51,371 bases of DNA from an uncultured Candidatus Saccharibacteria bacterium (GCA_964534365.1 CAZHOI010000001.1:254171-305541), one strand, 5' to 3'; shown: positions 1 to 38,218, counted from the first letter of the stretch. Translations and numbers: made by a program. The notes: a model not told the origin generated them from the letters alone.

Positions 1-2073
1 AGCTGCCATGGCTTTGAAATTATTTTTCGATTGATCTAAATTCATTCCCTCGGCAGCTGCCTCGGCGACTTCTAGCACTGCACCGTGCGTTAGTATCAAA
101 ATATTCTTTCCTGGATATTTAATAGCATATTCATCCAAAAACTTATTAATACGATTTTTTACATCTATAAAGGCCTCGCCTTCAGGTGGTCGATATAAAT
201 AATCATCCACATTACTACTATGTCGTGCGTCTCGCCATTCCTGGATATTGCGATTATTGAATTCTCCAAAATTAATCTCGCGAACTAAATCTTCGGTTAC
301 TATTTCTTTATCTGACTTTAATATTTTTAATAAAGTTTTGGCCGTTTGCTGACTGCGTAACAATGGTGAAGATACCACAATATCAAACTGGTCTAGGTTT
401 AAGTTTTTTGATAAATCCTTGATCTCTTGATGTCCCTTGTCGGTAATATCATGAGTTGAGTCTAAACCCGAATCAGCAACATTCGCGACATTATGAGTTG
501 CCTGCGCATGCCGAACGAAAGTAAAACTTGTTTCTGGTAAGTATTTTTTTAGCTCCTCTACTGAATCAATTACAACCCGATCACCATCTTCGGCTTCCCA
601 GATTGGCAAGGGCGTGCCCCAATAGCGCTCACGCGACACTGCCCAGTCCTTGACTCCGCGCAGCCATTCTTCCACTCGCCCGTTTTTTATGTAATCCGGC
701 TCCCAATTAATCTTGTCATTATTTTCCAGCAGACGGGCTCGTAAATCAGACATTCTGATATACCAGCTGTCACGTGCATAGTAGATCAATGGAGTTTTAC
801 AGCGCCAACAATGTGGGTAGGTGTGTTCGTATTTCTCCTTATCAAACAGCAAAGCTGGGCCATTGTTATCTTCCTCTCGCAGTGCTAAATCCCGAATTAT
901 ATCGACGGCTACTTGTTCATCTTTGACAAACCTACCCAACAAGAAATCAGTCCCCTGAATAAAATAACCCTCTTCATTTACCAGATGGAATTTTGGTAAA
1001 CCAATTTTATTACCCAATACAAAGTCATCTTGTCCGTACATAACCGCTGTATGCACAATACCGGTACCATCTTCAGTAGTGACAAAATCAGCTGGATATA
1101 TCTGATAAGCGGTTTGGTCAAGAGCGGTTTTTTCCTCTGCGGTTACAAGATCAGACAGATACGGATAAAGTGGCTTGTACTTTAAACCTACCAATTCAGA
1201 CCCTTTAATTTCATTGATTATTTTATACTCTTTGCTTGCCTTTTGAAAAACTTTTTCTGCCAAATCTTTAGCCAGGATGAAATATTCTTCATTTGGAAGT
1301 CCGACTTCCAAGCTTTTTACTTTGACGTAATCAATCCCTTCCCCAACTGCCAAGGCAACATTACCAGGTAAGGTCCAGGGTGTCGTGGTCCATGCCAACA
1401 CAAAAGTATCTGGATCGTCAATCAGCTGAAATTTTGCAGTCACTGATAAATCTTTGACCGTTTTATAACCTTGGGCTAGTTCATGCGATGACAATGCAGT
1501 GCCACAGCGACTACACCATGGCAGGACTTTGTAGTCTTTATACAATAAATCATTCTTGGCAGCTTGCGAGAATACCCACCACACTGATTCCATATAACCT
1601 GGATTAAAAGTGTAATAGGCAGTGTCGTGATCTAACCAATAACCAATCCGGTCGGTAAAAGCTTGCCATTCATCAACGTACTTTAAAACTGATTCGCGAC
1701 ATTTTTCATTAAACTCGGCAATGCCGTATTTTTCAATATCAGGTTTACCGCTAAATCCCAGTTGCTTTTCTACTTCTAGCTCGACCGGTAGACCATGAGT
1801 GTCCCAGCCAGCCCGTCTGGCCACGTGATAACCTTGCATCGTTTTGTAACGCGGAATCGCGTCTTTGAACGCTCGCGATTCTAGGTGATGAATCCCCGGA
1901 CGACCATTGGCAGTAGGTGGCCCTTCGTAGAACACATATTCGCCCTGTGGAGATGGTTTTTCCAGAGATTTTTCAAAAATATTATTCTGGCGCCAAAATT
2001 CTGAGATTGCTTCCTCGCTTTGGGCAAGTGGTGATTTTTCGAATTCCTGATAATCGTGATCCGACTTGGTCAT
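1..2073 (-). CDS. ileS: Isoleucine--tRNA ligase (IleRS type 2), 5' part, runs off the window edge; contains an inserted histidine-phosphatase domain
   Basis: Missing from the ORF track because it is open-ended. Manual translation from ATG at 2073 gives YVFYEGPPTANGRPGIHH (HIGH region), GWDTHGLPVE, LAWTTTPWTLPGN, DGTGIVHTA and DWAVSRERYWGTPLPIW. Confidence 0.96.
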   Translation of the reverse strand, partial: MTKSDHDYQEFEKSPLAQSEEAISEFWRQNNIFEKSLEKPSPQGEYVFYEGPPTANGRPGIHHLESRAFKDAIPRYKTMQGYHVARRAGWDTHGLPVELEVEKQLGFSGKPDIEKYGIAEFNEKCRESVLKYVDEWQAFTDRIGYWLDHDTAYYTFNPGYMESVWWVFSQAAKNDLLYKDYKVLPWCSRCGTALSSHELAQGYKTVKDLSVTAKFQLIDDPDTFVLAWTTTPWTLPGNVALAVGEGIDYVKVKSLEVGLPNEEYFILAKDLAEKVFQKASKEYKIINEIKGSELVGLKYKPLYPYLSDLVTAEEKTALDQTAYQIYPADFVTTEDGTGIVHTAVMYGQDDFVLGNKIGLPKFHLVNEEGYFIQGTDFLLGRFVKDEQVAVDIIRDLALREEDNNGPALLFDKEKYEHTYPHCWRCKTPLIYYARDSWYIRMSDLRARLLENNDKINWEPDYIKNGRVEEWLRGVKDWAVSRERYWGTPLPIWEAEDGDRVVIDSVEELKKYLPETSFTFVRHAQATHNVANVADSGLDSTHDITDKGHQEIKDLSKNLNLDQFDIVVSSPLLRSQQTAKTLLKILKSDKEIVTEDLVREINFGEFNNRNIQEWRDARHSSNVDDYLYRPPEGEAFIDVKNRINKFLDEYAIKYPGKNILILTHGAVLEVAEAAAEGMNLDQSKNNFKAMAA

Positions 2074-2182
2074 TACTATACTTTACCAAGAACTGGTTAC
2101 TGATGCTAAGAATCTGTTGCATTTGCAGCCTGCTGACCATATATTTATATCGGATTTTCATTCCCACTACTCCCCAGACACC

Positions 2183-2668
2183 ATGTTGCAATTCCTACCC
2201 GGCCGGCCCACTCTGCCCGCTCCGAATTTTCCCGAGTTTCATTATGCTACCGCCCATCAACTGGAATTATTAACTCGCCGAGTCAGACTGACTTATGCTC
2301 TGCGCGAATTAGAACGCGAAGCTGGCGAAACTCTGCCTAGTAGTAATCTAAAAAATTATCTGACCAAAAAGCTCGACCCAATTTCAGGCCCTGCTGCTTG
2401 CCAGGCAGTCAACAGCTTACGTGATGGTCAGACACTTTCAGGCGAAAATAGCGCGAGTCTTCGACCGCTGTACGCCAGTATTGGTATTTACCTGTCTGAT
2501 GGACGGTTCAGCTGGGTATATGAAAAAGCGATCAAACCTCGTGATCAAGTCGCCAGCGTCTTTGCCACGTTGGCAAAATATGGCAACCTGGATATTTCCG
2601 AGGTGCTGGACTGGCTCCAATGTGAAGATTACCTTCGCGCCAAAACTAGAATAAGCTTGCTGACTTGA
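2183..2668 (+). CDS. Orphan helical protein, paralog 1 of a tandem trio
   Basis: ORF track gives 2066-2668, but that TTG overlaps the ileS start. The in-frame ATG at 2183 follows a C-rich leader like those of the two neighbours. Weak similarity to the next two ORFs (LKNYLTKKL..IS...A....NSL). Confidence 0.6.
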   Translation: MLQFLPGRPTLPAPNFPEFHYATAHQLELLTRRVRLTYALRELEREAGETLPSSNLKNYLTKKLDPISGPAACQAVNSLRDGQTLSGENSASLRPLYASIGIYLSDGRFSWVYEKAIKPRDQVASVFATLAKYGNLDISEVLDWLQCEDYLRAKTRISLLT

Positions 2669-2681
2669 AGCGAGCTGTCAT

Positions 2682-2745
2682 GGCAGGGTTGGTAGTAATA
2701 GTTCTTTACCCACCAACCCTGCCTAGTTAACAATAGGCAGTTTTT
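2682..2745 (+). terminator. Alternative hairpins ending in an intrinsic terminator
   Basis: GGCAGGGTTGGT (2682-2693) pairs with ACCAACCCTGCC (2712-2723); the overlapping CTGCCTA/TAGGCAG stem is followed by TTTTT. Confidence 0.7.
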
Positions 2746-2809
2746 ATTTGTGCAACTGTCTAAATTATTTAATAATTGACCTAGTTCCTTCCCACCTACC
2801 CCCAAACCC

Positions 2810-3184
2810 ATGAACCCGGACCTCATTCATTTCTGTTATTGCCTTGGCGTAAGTATTCTCAACGAAGAAGCTAATGTTAGGTTGATTCGAAAAATCACCG
2901 GTTCTGCTGACTATTCTGGCAATAAAATCATACTAGTTAGTAGACTGGGTAGAGTGTATGGCATCAGCGAGCCGATCGCACAGGACTTTATTGACCACCT
3001 ACCCAAGGCAGCCTATATGTCCCAAAGAGAGATTATGAGCAACCTAGGCCGAGAATGGATAGAGTTTTTTGCGGATTCAAATCCACCTAAATCACTTGTA
3101 GAAAACATCTCTGATCGCCTGGCCCTACCTCAAAAAAGAGTGATGAAAATTCTCGAGCAGGTCGAAGCAAGTTCAGCGCCATAA
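2810..3184 (+). CDS. Orphan helical protein, paralog 2
   Basis: 124-aa ORF; aligns by eye with 3344-3706 (FCYCLG/FLITLG, GREWI/AKRWL, RVMKILE/RVIKILQ). Confidence 0.7.
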   Translation: MNPDLIHFCYCLGVSILNEEANVRLIRKITGSADYSGNKIILVSRLGRVYGISEPIAQDFIDHLPKAAYMSQREIMSNLGREWIEFFADSNPPKSLVENISDRLALPQKRVMKILEQVEASSAP

Positions 3185-3206
3185 CGGTTACGCAAAATTA
3201 TAAATG

Positions 3207-3276
3207 GGCAGCGGTAGGAGGATGGTAATTAGTTCTTTATCTCCTACCGCTGCCTGTATCCTAAGTGGCAGTTTTT
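3207..3276 (+). terminator. Second copy of the alternative-hairpin/terminator element
   Basis: GGCAGCGGTAGGAG (3207-3220) pairs with CTCCTACCGCTGCC (3241-3254); CTGCC/GGCAG followed by TTTTT; same loop motif GTAAT(T)AGTTCTTTA as at 2695. Confidence 0.7.
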
Positions 3277-3343
3277 CATTGCTTACTATTAATTTTTATT
3301 ACATAATTTTGTAGGACACCCCTTCCTCACCCTCCCTACCCCG

Positions 3344-3706
3344 ATGCAGATCAAACCTACCACCCCCCAAGAATTCTTGATCACTCTCGGCAGAATGCTT
3401 TTAGGTGAAATATACAGAACCTTTAACCCACCAACACACCGTAGAAATGGTGATATTCATGGAAGCTTGTCACTGTGTCTAAGTAACAAACTAAATATAA
3501 CCGCTCGGCTTGCTGATGATATCGCCAACAAACTAATAGGAGGGAAAAATATCAGACCAGCCCTTCTGACTATCATTGCCAAGCGCTGGCTTCGTAAGGA
3601 ATCAAATAAACGTGGCAACTACGTTACGATTAGAAGAGTAATCAAAATATTGCAGGTAACACCTAAAGATTTGCGTCACATTGTGTCACAACCTCTTGTT
3701 CAATAG
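3344..3706 (+). CDS. Orphan basic helical protein, paralog 3
   Basis: 120-aa ORF with C-rich leader; followed by terminator TGACCACCTAC/GTAGGTGGTCA plus T-run at about 3750-3790. Confidence 0.7.
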   Translation: MQIKPTTPQEFLITLGRMLLGEIYRTFNPPTHRRNGDIHGSLSLCLSNKLNITARLADDIANKLIGGKNIRPALLTIIAKRWLRKESNKRGNYVTIRRVIKILQVTPKDLRHIVSQPLVQ

Positions 3707-3840
3707 ACAACTCTAGTAGGGGTAAAAAACACATGCTCGCTCCTTCCCCTGACCACCTACACTCGCGGTAGGTGGTCACTTTTTTATTTTCAAATTTAGT
3801 TAATTTTGTATAGAATCATATTGGACCTGCCCCTAGACCA

Positions 3841-4164
3841 ATGAAGAAAAAGATAGTAGAGCTCTATGCTATTAGCTTATGCACATTCGGTACCGGCGCC
3901 TTTCTAGTAATACTTAGCTCTTTAGATCCTAGTGAATTAACATTCGTGGCTATTATTTTATTTTTAGTCTATTTATACAACCGCAGGCCAAGGCCAGGCA
4001 ATGGGGGTAATGATAGCCCCGCACTTCCCGTTAGGCCACTTCCACCACGGCCAACACCGCGCAGCTATGCCATAGACAGAAAGCCACAACGTTCCGTGAC
4101 CTCGCCCTTTCCTACCAGAACCCGTCGTCGTGCTATACGATCGGCGGGTTTATTTTTGTCATAA
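3841..4164 (+). CDS. Small two-TM membrane protein with Pro/Arg-rich tail
   Basis: Two hydrophobic stretches followed by low-complexity RPRPG...PVRPLPPRPTPR. Confidence 0.55.
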   Translation: MKKKIVELYAISLCTFGTGAFLVILSSLDPSELTFVAIILFLVYLYNRRPRPGNGGNDSPALPVRPLPPRPTPRSYAIDRKPQRSVTSPFPTRTRRRAIRSAGLFLS

Positions 4165-4207: not shown

Positions 4208-5824
4208 CTACATTTTCTCTGGCACTTTAATACCTAACACTTTCAATCCCGCCGAAATAACCTGCGATATTTTGACAATAATAGCCAGTCGATGTGATGA
4301 CGTGACTTTATCCGCAGAATTAACAACCTGATGGTTGGCATAATATGAATTTGCTGCCTGCGATAATTGCAATAAATACTGAACCAATAACTGAGGGGCG
4401 TGTTCTTTCTGGGCTTGTTCCAAAACAATCGGATATCGATATAATAATCGCGCTAATACAACTTCATCTTCTTGCATGCTACCAAGCTTGGGCTCGAGAT
4501 TAAATTCTTGGGCCTTGGCCACAATTGATGCAATCCGAACCACTGTGTACTGCAGATACGGTCCAGAATCGCCTTCAAATGACAGCGAGGTTTCCGGATC
4601 AAAATTAATGTTTGAACCAGGCGAGCTTTTTAACACCACGAATTTTAGAGCCCCGACCGCAATTGTTTCGATATCGGCTGGACTAATATCTTTGATTGAT
4701 CGGTCGCGCACCTCGTCTTTGATTGATTCAATAATTTCCTCGGCGGTTGGCACATTGCCCAATCGCGATGACATTTTTGCGCCCTGAAATTTCATCCTTC
4801 CATGCGCGATATGAACAGTTTTATCATGCCAACTTTTGTCAATTTCGCCCGCTGCCGCGAGCATCACCTTGAAATACTGGCTTTGTTCATAATCAGTAAC
4901 AATGATTGATTTATCGGGGCTATACTGATCAAACTTCAACTTTATTAACCCTAAATCCTTGGCTTCATAAGTGGGATAGCCCGCTGAATTGATAAATACC
5001 CGGGCATGCAATCCCTGATCGGTGGCGTCATAAATCACCGCATTCTGACTTTCTTGAAATATCTGGGGAATATTCTGTTTAACTAACTCTTCACCAATTA
5101 CAGCGGCCTCGGATTCAAAAATCAGTTTATCAAATTGTGATCCTAGTTTATGTGTAATGGCTTTAAAATATTCCAGAGTAATATCTTTGCCAATGTTATA
5201 AGCAGTAGTGTATTCAGAGTCATTTCCCTCGTATAAATCTGTGGTGATGTCGCAGATGGTTTTCTGCAACTCTTCATTATCATCATAAGCTCTGGTCCCG
5301 GCCACATAACAGTCGCCTAAAAATTGTAGTTTTTCTTGTAAAGAAGTTTTATCATTTAACTCATCCAGACCACGCTTATTCAGGGCCCAAACTGCCTTGG
5401 CAATTCCCAATGACACATCAGACGGATACGAAACTGTAATTACTTTATGATTTTGGCTACGATACAAACCAGCAATAGCCTCGCCAATAATATTGTTCAT
5501 AGTATGACCAATGTGAAATGGCTTGAATAAATTTGGACTTGAATGTTCGACCACTATCGTTTGTTTTTCAGAATTTGAACTGAATTGTAATCCGTGAGTT
5601 TGGTTAAAAACTGATTCCAGGGTCTGATCGTCCAGCCAGAAATTGATAAAGCCGGGACCAGCGACCTCTATTTTTTTGAACCCCTCTACCTCCCCTAATT
5701 CATCTACAATTTCCGCTGCCAAATCCTTTGGGTTCTTACCCTCGGCACTGGCACGTTGCATTGCAATATTGGAAGTAAAATCCCCTTTAGTGAGGTCGGT
5801 AGTAAGTATTTTTTCTAAATTCAT
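4208..5824 (-). CDS. argS: Arginine--tRNA ligase
   Basis: GDFTSN, AGPGFINF, SSPNLFKPFHIGH (HIGH), KMSSR, FEGDSGPYLQY, C-terminal PEKM. Confidence 0.97.
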   Translation of the reverse strand: MNLEKILTTDLTKGDFTSNIAMQRASAEGKNPKDLAAEIVDELGEVEGFKKIEVAGPGFINFWLDDQTLESVFNQTHGLQFSSNSEKQTIVVEHSSPNLFKPFHIGHTMNNIIGEAIAGLYRSQNHKVITVSYPSDVSLGIAKAVWALNKRGLDELNDKTSLQEKLQFLGDCYVAGTRAYDDNEELQKTICDITTDLYEGNDSEYTTAYNIGKDITLEYFKAITHKLGSQFDKLIFESEAAVIGEELVKQNIPQIFQESQNAVIYDATDQGLHARVFINSAGYPTYEAKDLGLIKLKFDQYSPDKSIIVTDYEQSQYFKVMLAAAGEIDKSWHDKTVHIAHGRMKFQGAKMSSRLGNVPTAEEIIESIKDEVRDRSIKDISPADIETIAVGALKFVVLKSSPGSNINFDPETSLSFEGDSGPYLQYTVVRIASIVAKAQEFNLEPKLGSMQEDEVVLARLLYRYPIVLEQAQKEHAPQLLVQYLLQLSQAANSYYANHQVVNSADKVTSSHRLAIIVKISQVISAGLKVLGIKVPEKM

Positions 5825-6370: not shown

Positions 6371-6676
6371 TTACGCTACTACCATGACCCTCTTTCGTCC
6401 ATTTATTTGGCGATAGATGGACCTAATCATCTCCTCAGCATGAGGGTCAACCATCAGGTCTTCCAGTCCAGCAAAGTCCGGATGATTGGGGATTTGTTCC
6501 AGGATGAATGACATCCTGCTGACTGTTGGCGATGTAATGTCTAACAGAGTTTCCCCGGACATCATAGAGATCAAGTACGCTAAATCGGGTTTCTCCGTGT
6601 CCGAGGAGGTTATGATCGCCAAGGCGATCGCAGCGGCTGTCTTTTGGCAGCGGGTATGAGAGGTGGTGGGAAGCAT
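6371..6676 (-). CDS. Orphan protein with C-rich leader
   Basis: 101-aa ORF; leader CCCACCCCCTCATATCCCCC-ATG; GC-rich terminator hairpin at about 6318-6352. Confidence 0.6.
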   Translation of the reverse strand: MLPTTSHTRCQKTAAAIALAIITSSDTEKPDLAYLISMMSGETLLDITSPTVSRMSFILEQIPNHPDFAGLEDLMVDPHAEEMIRSIYRQINGRKRVMVVA

Positions 6677-6948
6677 GGGGGATATGAGGGGGTGGGAATT
6701 AGCAACTCTAGAATATTTCTAGTGTTGCTTGTCTAGGTTGTATTGTATGACTTAATATAAAACAAGTCAACAAACGTGACAACCCGTCAACTTTACTGTA
6801 ATTAAATTTTATTGCATTATGCATGACAGAAACACGCTCTGGCTTACTTGAGTGATTAAGAAGCTGGGGTCTCGACTCCAACTTCCATCTTATCAAGCAA
6901 CAGCCCGGGCCCCGTTAACGTTCTCCCCTCTCCCCATCCCCCGTTCAC

Positions 6949-7920
6949 ATGAATCGCATCTTTAACCTGATGGTCATAGCGATCATCGCCCTGCTGCCAG
7001 GCATTGCCTCGGCCACCGACCTTCCGGTTGATTTCGGCGACGAGGTTGCGACATACCTCGAACTGTTCGAGGGTTACGACTACGAAGACGAGATGAAGGA
7101 AATCATCTCGGACCCTCGCAACCAAAACCTCTATAACGAGGTTTGTGCAGACCTGCCAAACAAAACTGGTTGGGACTGCACTGAAGTAGGTCAAAGCTTC
7201 TGGATAGGTAATCATAAAGTCACTATCAAATCCGGCGAGCACGGAATCTCGTGGGCGCTCGAGCGCTTTATTGCCGAGAATCCAGAGGTTATCGAGAAGT
7301 CACGTGACCCTCAGCAACCCTGGCCTGACAATCCGGCCGATCGTGACTCAATCGACAGTTCTGATATTACAACCGCTACTGATTCAGCGGTTGTAATCAT
7401 CAATGGACCTGCCGCTGATTCGGTTACTGAAAATACCGGTGATACTCAGGTAGATACTTCTACCTATATCGATAACGACATTTCGACCTCGCCTTCGTGG
7501 ACTCCTGAAAGAAATCAAGCTTGGATTATGTCAACCAGAATTTTCCCAGAACTTTTTATTGCTTTGGTAATTATTGGATTACTGTGCTTTGGATTTATCA
7601 AATACTGGCCCAGAATTCGTTGGGGTAGATCCCACAAAAGACATCGCGGACGACGACGTTCGTATCCTGGAGGCTCAACTGTTAGATCACGTAGATCTAA
7701 AAAAAGTCGAATTCCTAGGCGAGTACGGATTGCTGATTGGTTCGGCAACTTCTTCGGACGATCACGTAGAGTAACTTTGGCAGAGCGAGCCTATAATGAG
7801 CCGCCACCGATTAGTCCGGAAGACATCTGGGTTGAACCAACTGGTGACAGTGCTCCTCACAAACCAGCGAAAATAAGCCGACTTCCTGGCAAGCCTTTGA
7901 AACCTCCTGCGGAAGAATAA
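6949..7920 (+). CDS. Orphan single-pass surface protein (signal peptide, acidic ectodomain, TM, Arg-rich tail)
   Basis: Signal peptide MNRIFNLMVIAIIALLPGIASA; Asp/Thr/Ser-rich linker; TM LFIALVIIGLLCFGFI; RRRRS-type tail. Confidence 0.75.
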   Translation: MNRIFNLMVIAIIALLPGIASATDLPVDFGDEVATYLELFEGYDYEDEMKEIISDPRNQNLYNEVCADLPNKTGWDCTEVGQSFWIGNHKVTIKSGEHGISWALERFIAENPEVIEKSRDPQQPWPDNPADRDSIDSSDITTATDSAVVIINGPAADSVTENTGDTQVDTSTYIDNDISTSPSWTPERNQAWIMSTRIFPELFIALVIIGLLCFGFIKYWPRIRWGRSHKRHRGRRRSYPGGSTVRSRRSKKSRIPRRVRIADWFGNFFGRSRRVTLAERAYNEPPPISPEDIWVEPTGDSAPHKPAKISRLPGKPLKPPAEE

Positions 7921-34032: not shown

Positions 34033-34311
34033 ATTTACTTTCGAGTAAATACTTGTTTTGCCGTAGAAAGTAGATTGACCTGATGCGCACTTTTCCTACA
34101 AAGAAGCATGTGCGTCGACGAATTAGTACGCCACGGCTCAATACATTACTGTACTTCCACCTAGCGCCTATCAACCTGATCATCTCTCAGGGGTCTCAAA
34201 CGATATCTAATCTTGGAGGCGGCTTCGGACTTAGATGCTTTCAGCCCTTATCCGGTCCGAACATAGCTACTCGGCGGTGCCACTGGCGTGACAGCCGATA
34301 GACCAGAGGTT

Positions 34312-34343
<32 letters not shown>

Positions 34344-34382
34344 CTCTCCTCAAATATCAACGCCTACAGTAGATCAAGACCA

Positions 34383-34419
<37 letters not shown>

Positions 34420-34420
34420 T

Positions 34421-34454
<34 letters not shown>

Positions 34455-34530
34455 TCTCCAGCCCCAGGATGAGATGAGCCGACATCGAGGTGCCGAACAC
34501 CGCCGTCGCTCTGGACGCTTAGGCGGTACC

Positions 34531-34561
<31 letters not shown>

Positions 34562-35051
34562 GTGATCTCGAGCACCATCTGAAGGTTACTCTCGGTTCAC
34601 TAAGCTCTGCTTTCGCACCTGCTTGCGCTGTCACGCTCGCAGTCAAGCCGACTTATGCCCTTACACTATCGTCACGGTTTCCATCCGCAACTAGTCGACC
34701 TTTAGGCTCCTCCGTTACTCTTTAGGAGGAGAGCGCCCCACTCAAACTACCCAGCACAGTATGTCCCGATACGTTTTTGCCGTATAGGTTAGAATCTACA
34801 GAAGACAGGGGGAGTATCTCACTGGCGGCTCCAGTTCAGCTAGCGCTGAACCTTCAAAGCCTCCTCCCTATGCTGCACAAGCCCTCCATAGACCCAAACT
34901 GAACCTGTAGTAAAGCTCCCGGGGTCTTTTCGTCCCACTGCAGGTAACCGGCATCTTCACCGGTATAGCATTTTCACCGAGCTCTTCCTCGAGACAGTTC
35001 TCCAGTCGTTACGCCATTCGTGCACGTCGGAACTTACCCGACAAGGAATTA

Positions 35052-35090
<39 letters not shown>

Positions 35091-35113
35091 CGGGGCTTAT
35101 ATAGCCCAGCCCA

Positions 35114-35227
35114 ACAACACGCGAAGCACGTGTTGACAAACAACCAACTACAAACAACTTACGACAATTGGTTTTTGTCGTAAGTGGTAAGTTGTTAGTG
35201 GTAAGTAAACACATGTTCCATGTGTTG
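35114..35227 (-). other. 23S insertion, about helix 68
   Basis: Non-conserved ~114 nt with terminal AACAC/GTGTT hairpins and 7-nt-periodic arms. Confidence 0.8.
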
Positions 35228-35351
35228 CAGGACCGTCCATACTTAACCTTCCGGCATTGGTCAGGCGTCACCCCCTATACAGCCTCTTTCGAGTTCGCAG
35301 GGAGCTGTGTTTTTGGTAAACAGTCGCCAGAGAATCTTTAGCTGCGGCCCA

Positions 35352-35473
35352 GGTATCACGCTAGGCGTGATACACGGATAACTAATGACTCGGACTTATA
35401 ACCGGCACCATTTTGCTTGGGTTATAGGTTATTGTTATCAGTTACTCGTTAGTATCACACGCAGTGTGATACC
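35352..35473 (-). other. 23S insertion, about helix 63
   Basis: GTATCAC..GTGATAC hairpins at both ends; shares 24 identical nt with the helix-45 insertion. Confidence 0.8.
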
Positions 35474-36005
35474 CAGGCAGACCTTATCCCGAAGTTACGG
35501 TCGCTTTTTTGCCGAGTTCCTTGAGGAAGAATCACTCGTTCGCCTTGGTCTACTCGACCTGAACACCTGTGTTGGTTTGCGGTACGGACAATACAAATTT
35601 ATGCTTAGAAGTTTTTCTCGGCTAATTGCTCACTAGTTTTAGATCACCTAAAAGGCTCACGTCATGACATGCGTTGCGGTATATGGTATCCGGATTTGCC
35701 TAAATACCCCACTTCAGCTGCCAACCCCAATCCAATAAGGGGCACTAGCTACTAATCAGCGTCACTCCATCGCAACTTGCATTGGCCAGGGAATATTAAC
35801 CCTGTGTCCATCGCCTCCCCCTTTAGGGATCGGCTTAGGCCCGGCTAACCCGACTCTGATTAACATCGAATCGGAAACCTGGTTCTTTCGGCGTGTGGGA
35901 ATCTCACCCACATTGCGGTTACTCGTGCCAACATTCTCTCTTGTATCCGCTCCACCCCCGCTTACGCGTTAGGCTTCGGCGCTGAATACAATGCTCTCCT
36001 ACCAC

Positions 36006-36145
36006 TAGCGCACCTCACTCAAGTTCGGTTCGCTAACTAATAACTTATAACTTGAACTTATAACCGGCACCATTTTGCTATTTGGTTTTATTATTAGTCA
36101 TTGTTATCAGTTATTAGTTGCATCGAACCTCAGTGAGATGCACTA
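36006..36145 (-). other. 23S insertion, about helix 45
   Basis: Closing stem GCACCTCACT/AGTGAGATGC; TAAC-periodic arms. Confidence 0.8.
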
Positions 36146-36764
36146 ATCCGCAGTTTCGGTACTACACTTAGCCCCGATCATCTTCGGCGCGAAGTCCCTG
36201 AATCAGTGAGCTGTTACGCTATCTTTAACAGGTGGCTGCTTCTAAGCCAACTGCCTGATTGTCTATGGAACTTCACCTCCTTCATTGCACTTAGTGTAGA
36301 TTTAGGGACCTTAACTAGCGATCTGGGCTGTTTCCCTTTTGACCTGCGGAGCTTAGCCCCCGCGGTCTGACTCCCATGTTCTTGACCTCTCGGTATTCGG
36401 AGTTTGATTGGTCTAACGAGCTTGCGCCCTATTTAGACCATCCAGTGCTCTACCCCCGGAGGGAACACATGAGGCTAGTCCTAAAACTATTTCGGAGAGA
36501 ACCAGCTATTACCAGGCTCGATTAGCTTTTCACTGCTATCCACAGCTCATCCCCTCGCTTTGAACGACGAGTGGGTGCGGGCCTCCAGCGACATCTCTGT
36601 CGCCTTCACCCTGGCCATGGATAGATCGCCTGGTTTCGGGTCCGATACTTACGACGTTAATTTTCGCGCTTTCACACTTGCTTTCGCTCTGGCTCCAGAC
36701 CTTTTAGCCTTTAGCCCGCCATAAATATCGACTCGTTGGCTCATTCTTCAATAGGCACGCCGTC

Positions 36765-36872
36765 GAGGACATCACGCTACGCGCGATTGTCAAATAACAC
36801 ATATCATGGAGCAAATTGTTCCATGTTTTATGATTTGTGCTTTATGGCTATCACCCACAGGGTGATGCCCTC
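36765..36872 (-). other. 23S insertion, about helix 25
   Basis: ATCAC/GTGAT ends; 55/60 identity with the 37177-37291 insertion. Confidence 0.8.
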
Positions 36873-36923
36873 TCCGACTCCTTGTAGACACACGGTTTCA
36901 GGTCTATTTCACTCCCTTTGCCA

Positions 36924-36965
<42 letters not shown>

Positions 36966-37176
36966 ATCTCTAAAGATATTTAGCCTTACCAGTCAGTACT
37001 GGCAGATTCCTCCCGGCTATTCATGTCCGGAAGTACTCAGGAACAGAGACTATAGAGTTCTCGTAATTTCGCATACAGGACTATCACCCTCTATGGTTAA
37101 CCTTTCCAGGTTATTTTGCTATCACGAGAATTTGTAACTCTACCTACGTGAACGCAGAGTCTCTGCCCTACAACCC

Positions 37177-37291
37177 CGACGCATCACGCGAAGCATGATG
37201 CTCATGTAGCACATAACACGTATCTTGGAGCAAATTGTTCCATGTTTTATGATTTATGCTTCATGGCGATCACATTCCATGTGATGCGCCG
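37177..37291 (-). other. 23S insertion, about helix 16-18 region
   Basis: GCATCAC/GTGATGC ends with terminal hairpins. Confidence 0.8.
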
Positions 37292-37633
37292 GTTTGGGCT
37301 CTTCCCGTTTCGCTCGCCGCTACTCGGGGAATCGATTTTTCTTTCTATTCCTCTTGGTACTGAGATGTTTCACTTCCCAAGGTCAGCTTCCCGATGACTT
37401 ATGCATCGGAATTACGAGGTTTTACCTCGTAGGGTTTCCCCATTCGGAAATCCCGGGGTAAGTTTGTTAGGCAACTAACCCGGGCTTATCGCAGCCGTAC
37501 CACGTCCTTCATCGCTCTTTAGAGTCAAGGCATCCGCCGTGTGCCCTTAGTCGCAGACACTTCCTTATAGGAAAGCTGCGCACCAAGTCTTTTCTACACT
37601 CAACGATCCCGCTAGTCGGGATTGTTTCGTTAT

Positions 37634-37661
37634 GGCATAGAAATCAGTGATTTCTATTAGC
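37634..37661 (-). repeat. Motif copy in the pre-23S leader
   Basis: GGCATAGAAATCAGTGATTTCTATTAGC on +. Confidence 0.85.
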
Positions 37662-37774
37662 GCACATAGACCAGTTGAGTGTAAAAATTTGATCGCTCCG
37701 CCTAGGGCGGAACTTGTAACACTACAATTATTTTCTACTTCCGCTTGGCAAAATTTAATTTTGCCGGCGCTTAT

Positions 37775-37803
37775 GGCATAGATTCTTTGGAGAATCTATT
37801 AGC
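37775..37803 (-). repeat. Motif copy in the pre-23S leader
   Basis: GGCATAGATTCTTTGGAGAATCTATTAGC on +. Confidence 0.85.
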
Positions 37804-38189
37804 CGCAACGCTTTTTAACGAAAGTGGTGATTCTGATACTTTTATAAAAAAATGTATCAAAAATTAAATGCTTTTGCTTTTGAGACGTTATCGATTCAAA
37901 TGAATCGAACATTTTTGTTTGGTTGCCCCTCCCTCAGGCTGAGTGAGGGGCGGATAACAAGATGTCGTGCTAAATTAATTAAAATTAATCGCACGTAACG
38001 TTTGTCATCCCGACATTTCGTCGGGACAAACGTTGATATTCTCATTCGTATTCAATTGTCAATGATCTCCCCGTGATTGCAGAAGCTAATGAAAACGACC
38101 GCGGCAAGCGGTCGTTGGTCAGTCTTGAAGACTTACCGTTAACTACTTGTCAGTTGTTTTCTTGTAATCTTCTTTAACACGTGGGTGAT

Positions 38190-38218
38190 AATATAACCGA
38201 TGCCAATTTATAAGTCAA
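38190..38218 (-). promoter_or_regulatory. Likely sigma70 promoter of the 23S-5S transcript
   Basis: TTGACT-17 nt-TATATT on the minus strand; boxA-like GATCATTGACAATTGAATA at about 38068-38049. Confidence 0.7.

Follow-up and report, generated by a model that had tools for sequence, protein, structure and literature searches.

Two diverged copies of a candidate terminator-promoter junction module between small orphan genes of a Candidatus Saccharibacteria genome

In the window analysed here, a stretch of 51,371 nucleotides from an uncultured Candidatus Saccharibacteria bacterium, two small orphan genes are each followed by an element in which a long and perfect stem-loop (arm A paired with arm B, hereafter A:B) shares the 3' foot of its stem with a short hairpin that abuts a run of five T (hereafter B':C, in which the foot pairs with a downstream GGCAG word). 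The reading that I favour, tentatively and with a confidence that stops short of calling it probable, is that these are two diverged copies of a terminator-promoter junction module, in which the dominant hairpin would mask a weak terminator and termination would be leaky. Two copies that share ancestry, in one metagenome-assembled genome, give the covariation between them little statistical power.

The genome around the window comprises 755,701 bp in 15 contigs (roughly 40% G+C, 97% complete), and the stretch is present in contigs assembled from a single microbial-mat sample by DNA sequencing; no RNA run was listed as containing it. Both elements lie in an island of 2.1 kb that holds four small plus-strand ORFs, g1 to g4, with ileS on one side and argS on the other:

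1-2073, minus strand: ileS (ORF call)
2183-2668, plus strand: g1, orphan ORF of 161 aa, with a C-rich, G-poor leader ahead of it at about 2153-2182
2810-3184, plus strand: g2, orphan ORF, 124 aa; its C-rich leader lies at about 2784-2809
3344-3706, plus strand: g3, orphan ORF, 120 aa; its leader is likewise C-rich
3841-4164, plus strand: g4, small ORF (ORF call)
4208-5824, minus strand: argS (ORF call)

The argS and ileS genes are adjacent, and oriented as here, in three genomes of the same family (G001, G003 and G005); they are separated by about 130 nt in G001, about 0.9 kb in G003 and about 1.3 kb in G005, the latter two gaps containing other small opposite-strand ORFs. Since the gap differs among relatives, the island is an insertion at a variable slot. 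Its 2.1 kb of DNA gave zero matches among 60 related genomes. Among 5.8 billion clustered proteins g1, g2 and g3 each match themselves only, none of g1 to g4 reaches a Pfam family at cut-off, g3 has no look-alike in the protein atlas, and the AlphaFold model of g2 is all-helical and of low confidence (pLDDT 58.8). In-frame codon scores are 0.15, 0.10, 0.03 and -0.06 for g1 to g4, the housekeeping mean being 0.31. An earlier reading, made from the sequence only, spoke of read-through from one paralog into the next; BLASTP detects no paralogy for g2 and g3 (E 0.27) or for g1 and g2 (E 21), and the term is dropped here. Leaders of the C-rich, G-poor class found ahead of g1 to g4 (about 28 nt each, as read from the sequence) precede 20 ORFs genome-wide, the majority being small orphans that carry canonical terminators made of a GC-rich hairpin and a T-run.

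The two copies, at 2682-2745 and 3207-3276, are located where the sequence-only reading had put them, and consist of the following parts:

2682-2693, plus strand: arm A of copy 1, GGCAGGGTTGGT; an ATG at 2680-2682 overlaps the stem foot
2694-2711, plus strand: loop of copy 1, 18 nt, with the conserved core GTAATAGTTCTTTA at 2695-2708
2712-2723, plus strand: arm B of copy 1, ACCAACCCTGCC; its last 5 nt, CTGCC (2719-2723), are common to the terminator helix
2724-2735, plus strand: spacer of copy 1, 12 nt
2736-2740, plus strand: GGCAG of copy 1
2741-2745, plus strand: T5 run of copy 1
2719-2745, plus strand: weak terminator B':C of copy 1, made of CTGCCTA, an 8-nt loop, TAGGCAG and then T5; flagged by the terminator scan
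3207-3220, plus strand: arm A of copy 2, GGCAGCGGTAGGAG; an ATG lies directly 5' of it at 3204-3206
3221-3240, plus strand: loop of copy 2, 20 nt, with the conserved core GTAATTAGTTCTTTA at 3225-3239
3241-3254, plus strand: arm B of copy 2, CTCCTACCGCTGCC; its CTGCC (3250-3254) is common to the terminator helix
3255-3266, plus strand: spacer of copy 2, 12 nt
3267-3271, plus strand: GGCAG of copy 2
3272-3276, plus strand: T5 run of copy 2
3250-3276, plus strand: weak terminator B':C of copy 2, made of CTGCC, a 12-nt loop, GGCAG and then T5

Arms A and B are 100% complementary over 12 bp in copy 1 and 14 bp in copy 2, with differing internal sequences, and one inserted T is the sole difference between the two versions of the loop core, GTAAT(T)AGTTCTTTA. 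This core is confined to these two sites in the genome; its next-nearest matches carry 1-2 substitutions and none is flanked by arms. The alternative pairing of CTGCC with GGCAG-TTTTT, which had been proposed along with the perfect stem and the conserved loop, is likewise seen in both copies and with an identical 12-nt spacing. The resulting helix has 7 bp and an 8-nt loop in copy 1. That of copy 2 has 5 bp, or 6 if a G-U is counted, and its loop of 12 nt keeps it from being flagged by the terminator scan, which accepts loops of at most 8 nt. Both copies thereby present a G+C-rich hairpin directly before a U-run, as intrinsic terminators do, and because the CTGCC strand is common to A:B and B':C, the two helices are mutually exclusive and one of them is a terminator. 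In folding, the 3' regions beat 200 of 200 of their own dinucleotide shuffles, with z values of -4.5 (copy 1) and -4.1 (copy 2). The hairpin structure and the anatomy of the element are confirmed.

At an offset of 531 the copies align without gaps all the way from their loops to the next gene's -10 hexamer, and identity is gathered into islands: 11/13 in the loop, 5/5 in CTGCC, 10/10 in GGCAGTTTTT (GGCAG-T5) and 6/6 in the -10 hexamer. Between these islands identity is close to random, at 4/12 in the spacer, 4/10 in inner arm B and 6/17 in the promoter spacer. All three GGCAG/CTGCC words are unchanged, as is the T5 run. In the structural alignment, which was taken from the covariance model, MAFFT having left the 5' arms out of register, 9 of the 14 stem pairs are invariant, 4 are changed on both sides and none is changed on one side only, the remaining pair being an A.C, unpaired, in copy 1. 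A covariance model built from copy 2 alone recovers copy 1 with 35.9 bits (E 1.9e-8). The covariation values observed between the two sequences are reached by 32 of 500 shuffles and are suggestive but not significant, given n=2 and shared ancestry. A word locked in two alternative helices is expected to be invariant and a single helix to be free to covary, which is the pattern observed: the invariant 5-nt words, the covarying inner stem and the scrambled spacer fit selection on both pairings, and, as far as a sequence comparison goes, they speak for an RNA element that can pair in two alternative ways rather than for a simple hairpin. Given the covarying stem, the fixed length of the spacer, the invariant words and the invariant loop, both helices and the loop sequence would be expected to matter.

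Perfect arms have another possible source, as template-switch correction of quasipalindromes in replication can keep them perfect without selection on an RNA. On a DNA-level account the copies would be scars or recognition sites at the boundaries of inserted orphan-gene cassettes, made or kept perfect by template switching, or else sites of a structure-specific recombinase acting on single-stranded DNA, with no function in RNA. They are direct repeats about 530 bp apart that flank g2, and the argS-ileS gap, short in G001 and holding other small ORFs in G003 and G005, looks like an insertion hot spot. This account has to reckon, however, with the presence of 2 copies only in the genome, with the lack of any transposase, integrase or recombinase family in g1-g4, and with 4 DNA runs, all of one sample, that display no other letters, variants, indels, deletions or joints. 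Integron attC sites have the core words GTTRRRY/RYYYAAC, which are absent from copy 2; an integron attC site, a REP element and an IS200/IS605 end were rejected on the grounds of copy number, gene content and, for attC, these missing words. Furthermore, the hairpins have a T-run beside them on the plus strand only and sit exactly between a stop codon and a promoter, as would suit signals for transcription. A DNA-level origin of the whole pattern is accordingly rated as distinctly unlikely.

The two helices are of very unequal predicted strength. In isolation, A:B amounts to -24.8 (copy 1) and -29.0 kcal/mol (copy 2), and B':C to -11.0 and -8.9 kcal/mol, respectively. The realistic alternative fold that is competent for termination arises when strands are exchanged at the hairpin's foot, so that the inner part of A:B is kept and B':C forms beside it (energies in kcal/mol):

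Copy 1: full A:B -22.6; inner A:B with B':C -19.2; cost 3.4; barrier 6.2
Copy 2: full A:B -28.7; inner A:B with B':C -21.9; cost 6.8; barrier 9.7

In ensembles of the full-length mRNAs, A:B has a probability of 0.98 in both, and B':C of 0.027 (copy 1) and 0.000 (copy 2). Nascent RNAs whose 3' end lies at GGCAG or at T5 give B':C probabilities of 0.059 and 0.026 in copy 1 and of 0.000 in copy 2, so that the terminator hairpin is not the predicted nascent fold at the U-tract in either copy; all these figures are equilibrium predictions that contain neither ribosomes nor proteins, and kinetic trapping is possible. The sequence-only reading had itself named a single populated fold, along with termination that does not depend on the leader, as evidence against it; in silico, a single fold, A:B, is what folding returns. 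As a control, 77 T5-adjacent terminator candidates downstream of ORFs, a crude genome-wide set, were folded in a 100-nt context: 58 hold a probability >0.5 and 10 fall <0.1, the latter comprising both copies and eight irregular weak hairpins. Masking of a T5-adjacent hairpin is therefore, by these predictions, not unique to the two copies in this genome. A terminator that is formed in 0-3% of molecules may, moreover, not terminate at all.

The argument that B':C is nonetheless the terminator of the module comes from its position with respect to the signals around it:

2117-2145, plus strand: inferred promoter of g1, TTGCAT (2117-2122), 17-nt spacer, TATATT (2140-2145); 8/12 consensus positions
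2748-2776, plus strand: inferred promoter of g2, TTGTGC (2748-2753), 17-nt spacer, AATAAT (2771-2776)
3279-3307, plus strand: inferred promoter of g3, TTGCTT (3279-3284), 17-nt spacer, CATAAT (3302-3307)
3750-3785, plus strand: canonical terminator after g3, with an 11-bp stem (3750-3778 with the loop), a 7-nt loop and T6

A promoter-like hexamer pair with a 17-nt spacer lies ahead of each of g1-g4, the pairs of g1-g3 being read by eye at 8/12 positions, below the threshold of the scan, which only the g4 promoter passes. Those of g2 and g3 stand in the same register at the offset of 531. The T-run of the g3 terminator adjoins the -35 hexamer of g4 in a register that matches GGCAG-T5 of both copies. 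Because CTGCC...GGCAG-T5 occupies the same position as this canonical terminator, it would be the terminator of the module, and arm A with the loop would be an upstream addition. Two further small terminators in the genome have the same CTGCC/GGCAG stem with a T-run. A terminator on the minus strand was ruled out, as no T-run follows the hairpins there. A survey of 98 perfect inverted repeats yielded no second example that combines a masked short terminator with a conserved large loop. The other terminators of the genome are of the ordinary kind, a hairpin followed by a U-tract, and the Rho RNA-binding domain was not found (genome 97% complete), which leaves hairpin terminators as the only recognised termination route seen in the genome.

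The same position admits a different interpretation, since GGCAG-T5 could be kept for another reason, for instance as an element upstream of the promoter, spanning roughly -47 to -38. The element might then be static and switch nothing: A:B would be a 3' stabilising or processing hairpin or an intercistronic stability hairpin, GGCAG-T5 would belong to the promoter, and the fit of CTGCC to it would be incidental. That A:B dominates every ensemble agrees with this interpretation, as does the fixed register in which GGCAG-T5 adjoins the inferred -35 in both copies, and a protective or processed 3' hairpin is plausible because the genome encodes both an RNB-family 3' exonuclease and RNase III. However, a static element leaves three features unexplained, namely the invariance of the GGCAG/CTGCC foot beside a freely varying inner stem, the downstream word that is an exact complement of the 3' foot at a conserved distance of 12 nt, and the invariant 14-nt loop. 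In addition, GGCAG is absent upstream of the g1 and g4 promoters. I regard a static element as unlikely, while still according it real weight.

The sequence-only reading went further and described a switch that senses the leader. Arm A would pair with the 5' leader and start codon of its own gene, freeing arm B to terminate, and occupation of the leader would allow A:B to form and transcription to read through. Parts of this proposal hold up. The two helices are exclusive, as noted, and in nascent RNA, before arm B has emerged, the own leader is the best partner of arm A in both mRNAs (P 0.56-0.68). When B':C is enforced, arm A and the leader are paired in the best structure, which costs +1.8 (g1) and +8.0 (g2) kcal/mol; in g2 the predicted duplex takes in the A and U of the start codon, while the start codon of g1 lies outside it. 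The organism has neither an anti-Shine-Dalgarno sequence nor SD motifs, a setting in which leader structure could matter for initiation.

What does not hold up is the specific complementarity of arm A to its own leader. The duplex energies, -10.0 (copy 1) and -15.9 kcal/mol (copy 2), compare with shuffle means of -10.8 and -13.1 kcal/mol, and among 1000 shuffled arms of the same composition 61% (copy 1) and 17.6% (copy 2) do as well as the real arm; in nascent ensembles the corresponding counts are 18/25 (g1) and 2/25 (g2). Among 714 background upstream regions, the own-leader duplexes rank at 15% and 2.4%, and the arms pair about equally well with the leader of the next gene. Since a G-rich arm here meets a C-rich, G-poor leader and shuffled arms do equally well, the complementarity is best described as an effect of composition. 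Once arm B has been transcribed, the probability that arm A is paired with the leader falls to at most 0.004, and in the full-length mRNA it is 0.01 (g1) and 0.000 (g2), against the 0.98 of A:B. Moreover, a separate promoter seems to lie between each element and the ORF that follows, and the next gene could then be expressed without read-through. A leader-sensing switch of this form is thus very unlikely.

A precedent for such pairing is icaR (PMC3868564), in which a UCCCCUG motif in the 3' UTR pairs with the SD sequence and blocks initiation, as proven by compensatory mutants. The elements described here resemble icaR and the B. subtilis hbs mRNA (PMC5737220) in that part of the 3' UTR is predicted to pair with the region where translation of that mRNA begins; this genome, too, has an RNase III gene. 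By contrast, relative to icaR the polarity is reversed, a G-rich 3' arm meeting a C-rich leader without SD. Also in contrast to icaR, the pairing is no better than that of shuffled arms, so that sequence specificity is lacking, and the arm is tied up in a local hairpin of greater strength.

Two broader versions of the idea involve the whole leader class. In one, the element would be a leader-sensing 3'-end riboregulator, whose G-rich arm would probe C-rich leaders that lack an SD, either that of its own mRNA or those of the class (~20 genes); a free, untranslated leader would capture the arm and unmask the terminator, and an occupied leader would leave the hairpin intact and permit read-through. 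If true, this would couple transcript extension to translation status without Rho or SD pairing, but I give it only a slim chance. In the other, the released hairpin and its tail would act as a 3'-UTR-derived small RNA that pairs in trans with the leaders of about 20 orphan genes. Twenty ORFs do share C-rich, G-poor leaders, and the G-rich arm is predicted to pair with leaders of this kind; yet the arm is locked in a helix of -25 to -29 kcal/mol, the complement of the loop was not found in the genome at up to 2 substitutions, and no promoter was read from the sequence directly upstream of the hairpins. A small RNA is correspondingly improbable, to a degree that places it among the least credible of these explanations.

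Relatives of the element were sought at several levels, and it was found only twice, in one genome, among the collections searched. A strict pattern (loop end, CTGCC, GGCAGTTT) met 18 metagenome-contig and 16 genome-contig loci, in two global contig collections that may leave out records of the window's own genome, and none is a true match: the 34 loci have neither an arm A nor the GTAAT half of the loop, and every one is either an ordinary terminator or part of a coding sequence. The loop pattern gave 10 hits, none of them flanked by arms, across 400 genomes of the order, where a reversed-pattern control gave about 22. The covariance model built on both copies, R2, gave two chance-level hits in 149 relatives (E 0.022 and 0.055 per genome), which proved to be unrelated sequence, and a 19-bit covariance hit at 6697-6750 of the window is a different palindrome. 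Rfam at gathering thresholds found rRNAs only within the window, and a permissive scan of 2640-3320 returned only sub-threshold matches to hairpins of the miRNA-precursor type. The loop core GTTCTTTA resembles the boxA consensus. A NusB/NusE site of the boxA type was rejected upon comparison with the boxA-like words of the organism's own rrn leaders, ..CTTTGACAATTT in the 16S leader and ..CATTGACAATTG in the 23S leader, with which the loop core has only CTTT/TT in common. A conserved small peptide starting at the ATG of the stem foot was also rejected, as the loops differ by a 1-base indel that puts the copies out of frame with each other, and the two peptides, of 16 and 36 codons, are unrelated. 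A loop-like word at 2086-2100, upstream of ileS, has 3 mismatches; it coincides in part with the promoter inferred for ileS and is regarded as a chance match.

Among known systems, the element would work most like terminator/antiterminator attenuators, yet with neither a family match nor, among the CAT_RBD and TRAP types sought, a cognate protein found. The pyr and bgl operons carry several attenuators of this sort, built, as here, as a repeated module with a conserved recognition sequence and variable stems. In the Bgl/Sac RAT and PyrR-controlled pyr attenuators, which are protein-controlled terminator/antiterminator systems, a strand of the upstream hairpin doubles as the 5' arm of the terminator and the helices are exclusive, as PMC4347634 describes them and as observed for A:B and B':C. 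Several features differ. Here the antiterminator is far stronger than the terminator (-25/-29 versus -11/-9 kcal/mol), so that it would be stable without the help of a factor; instead of residing in a leader, the element follows a stop codon and precedes a promoter distinct from that of the upstream gene; and it matches no Rfam family. CAT_RBD and TrpBP/TRAP domains were not found in the genome (97% complete). With Rho-independent terminators and mRNA-stabilising 3' stem-loops the element has in common a hairpin and a U-tract after the stop codon. In contrast to ordinary terminators, the hairpin at its U-tract is short, with an 8-12-nt loop, and is masked by a 12-14-bp hairpin with a conserved loop of 18-20 nt.

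Taken as a duplicated junction module, the element would join the small orphan genes of the island between argS and ileS and would have three parts in RNA: the stable stem-loop A:B, the weak terminator B':C with its U5, which uses the 3' foot of that stem-loop as its own 5' arm, and, right after the U-tract, the promoter of the next gene. Since A:B emerges first during transcription and outweighs the terminator-competent fold by a predicted 3-7 kcal/mol, B':C would be masked most of the time. The module would then behave as a built-in antiterminated, leaky terminator, probably serving in addition as a 3' protective hairpin, and g1 and g2 transcripts would largely continue to the canonical terminator after g3. 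If a putative RNA-binding factor shifts the balance between A:B and B':C, its likeliest contact would be the loop GUAAU(U)AGUUCUUUA, whose conservation makes a factor-binding site possible. The genome yielded no candidate for such a factor, its CAT_RBD and TRAP searches being negative.

At present the element is of value mainly in two ways: it offers a clearly delimited construct on which termination can be assayed, and it illustrates that composition alone, a G-rich arm facing a C-rich leader, can mimic long-range regulatory pairing. If the junction-module reading is true, a terminator/antiterminator design at the 3' end of genes would join a class known almost only from 5' leaders, and an ultra-small bacterium would be tuning termination between its orphan genes by RNA structure alone.

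The 16S rRNA sequence that follows helix 45, at the 3' end, is ...GGTCGTGGAGTATTTCAATT (about 1501-1530 of L042, the stretch carrying the organism's own 16S rRNA gene; own genome C2:6451-8143, minus strand), and it lacks the anti-Shine-Dalgarno word CCTCC. Shine-Dalgarno-like tetramers are rarer upstream of long ORFs than inside genes (2.9% versus 9.3%, genome-wide, n=526 ORFs). Words like the -10 hexamer are enriched genome-wide at positions -20 to -4, which suggests leaderless mRNAs or very short leaders. By contrast, in G003 and G005, two relatives from the same family, AGGAG/GAGG is present before small ORFs.

A class of genes with C-rich leaders was delimited by requiring an ORF of at least 40 aa and, in the 24 nt before its ATG, at least 12 C and at most 2 G. 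Twenty ORFs form this class genome-wide, the majority of them small orphans whose terminators are strong and GC-rich. The C-rich stretch begins immediately 3' of a promoter-like -10, and a word resembling CCACCTACC recurs in the class. Within the window, the leaders, the first three belonging to the orphan ORFs g1-g3 between ileS and argS, are:

2153-2182, plus strand, C-rich leader of g1
2784-2809, plus strand, C-rich leader of g2
3316-3343, plus strand, C-rich leader of g3
about 6677-6700, minus strand, C-rich leader
6920-6948, C-rich leader

A palindrome, AGCAACTCTAGAA...TTCTAGTGTTGCT, lies at window 6697-6750 between two divergent genes of this class (6371-6676, minus strand; 6949-7920, plus strand) and looks like an operator. 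Elsewhere in the genome, at C1:7007-7088, a perfect 11-bp hairpin whose loop spans 30 nt has GGGGCAGTTTTTAT 20 nt downstream of it; this contains GGCAGTTTTTAT, a word also present in copy 1, the hairpin with overlapping weak terminator at window 2682-2745. Two palindromic repeat families, of the types GGCATAGAAATT...AATTTCTATTAGC and AGAAGTCCGACTTCC / ATTTGGAAGTCGGACTTCCAAAT, recur in rRNA leaders and spacers and at many other intergenic sites; the rrn leaders with such repeats are at window 37560-38200 (minus strand) and in L042.

The 23S rRNA gene (window 34104-37560, minus strand) measures 3457 nt against a model of 2925 positions, and the 16S rRNA gene (C2:6451-8143) 1693 nt against 1533; both therefore contain insertions, among them an AT-rich one in the 16S sequence. 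Isoleucyl-tRNA synthetase (window 1-2073, minus strand) has a histidine-phosphatase domain (His_Phos_1, E 6.4e-30) within its catalytic domain, at residues 518-682 of the 691 visible. In three relatives from the same family the ileS ORF is 1165-1202 aa long, so this insert may be shared.

The argS-ileS gap of G003 and G005 contains small ORFs on the opposite strand (L055 5303-6300 and L057 1-1364, stretches from these relatives), each with a Shine-Dalgarno sequence, a canonical terminator and a promoter-like sequence of its own. Judged by eye from a shared LRAAY...GHGQ, the ORFs of the two gaps look homologous to each other. The argS-ileS slot seems to gather small accessory genes throughout the family.
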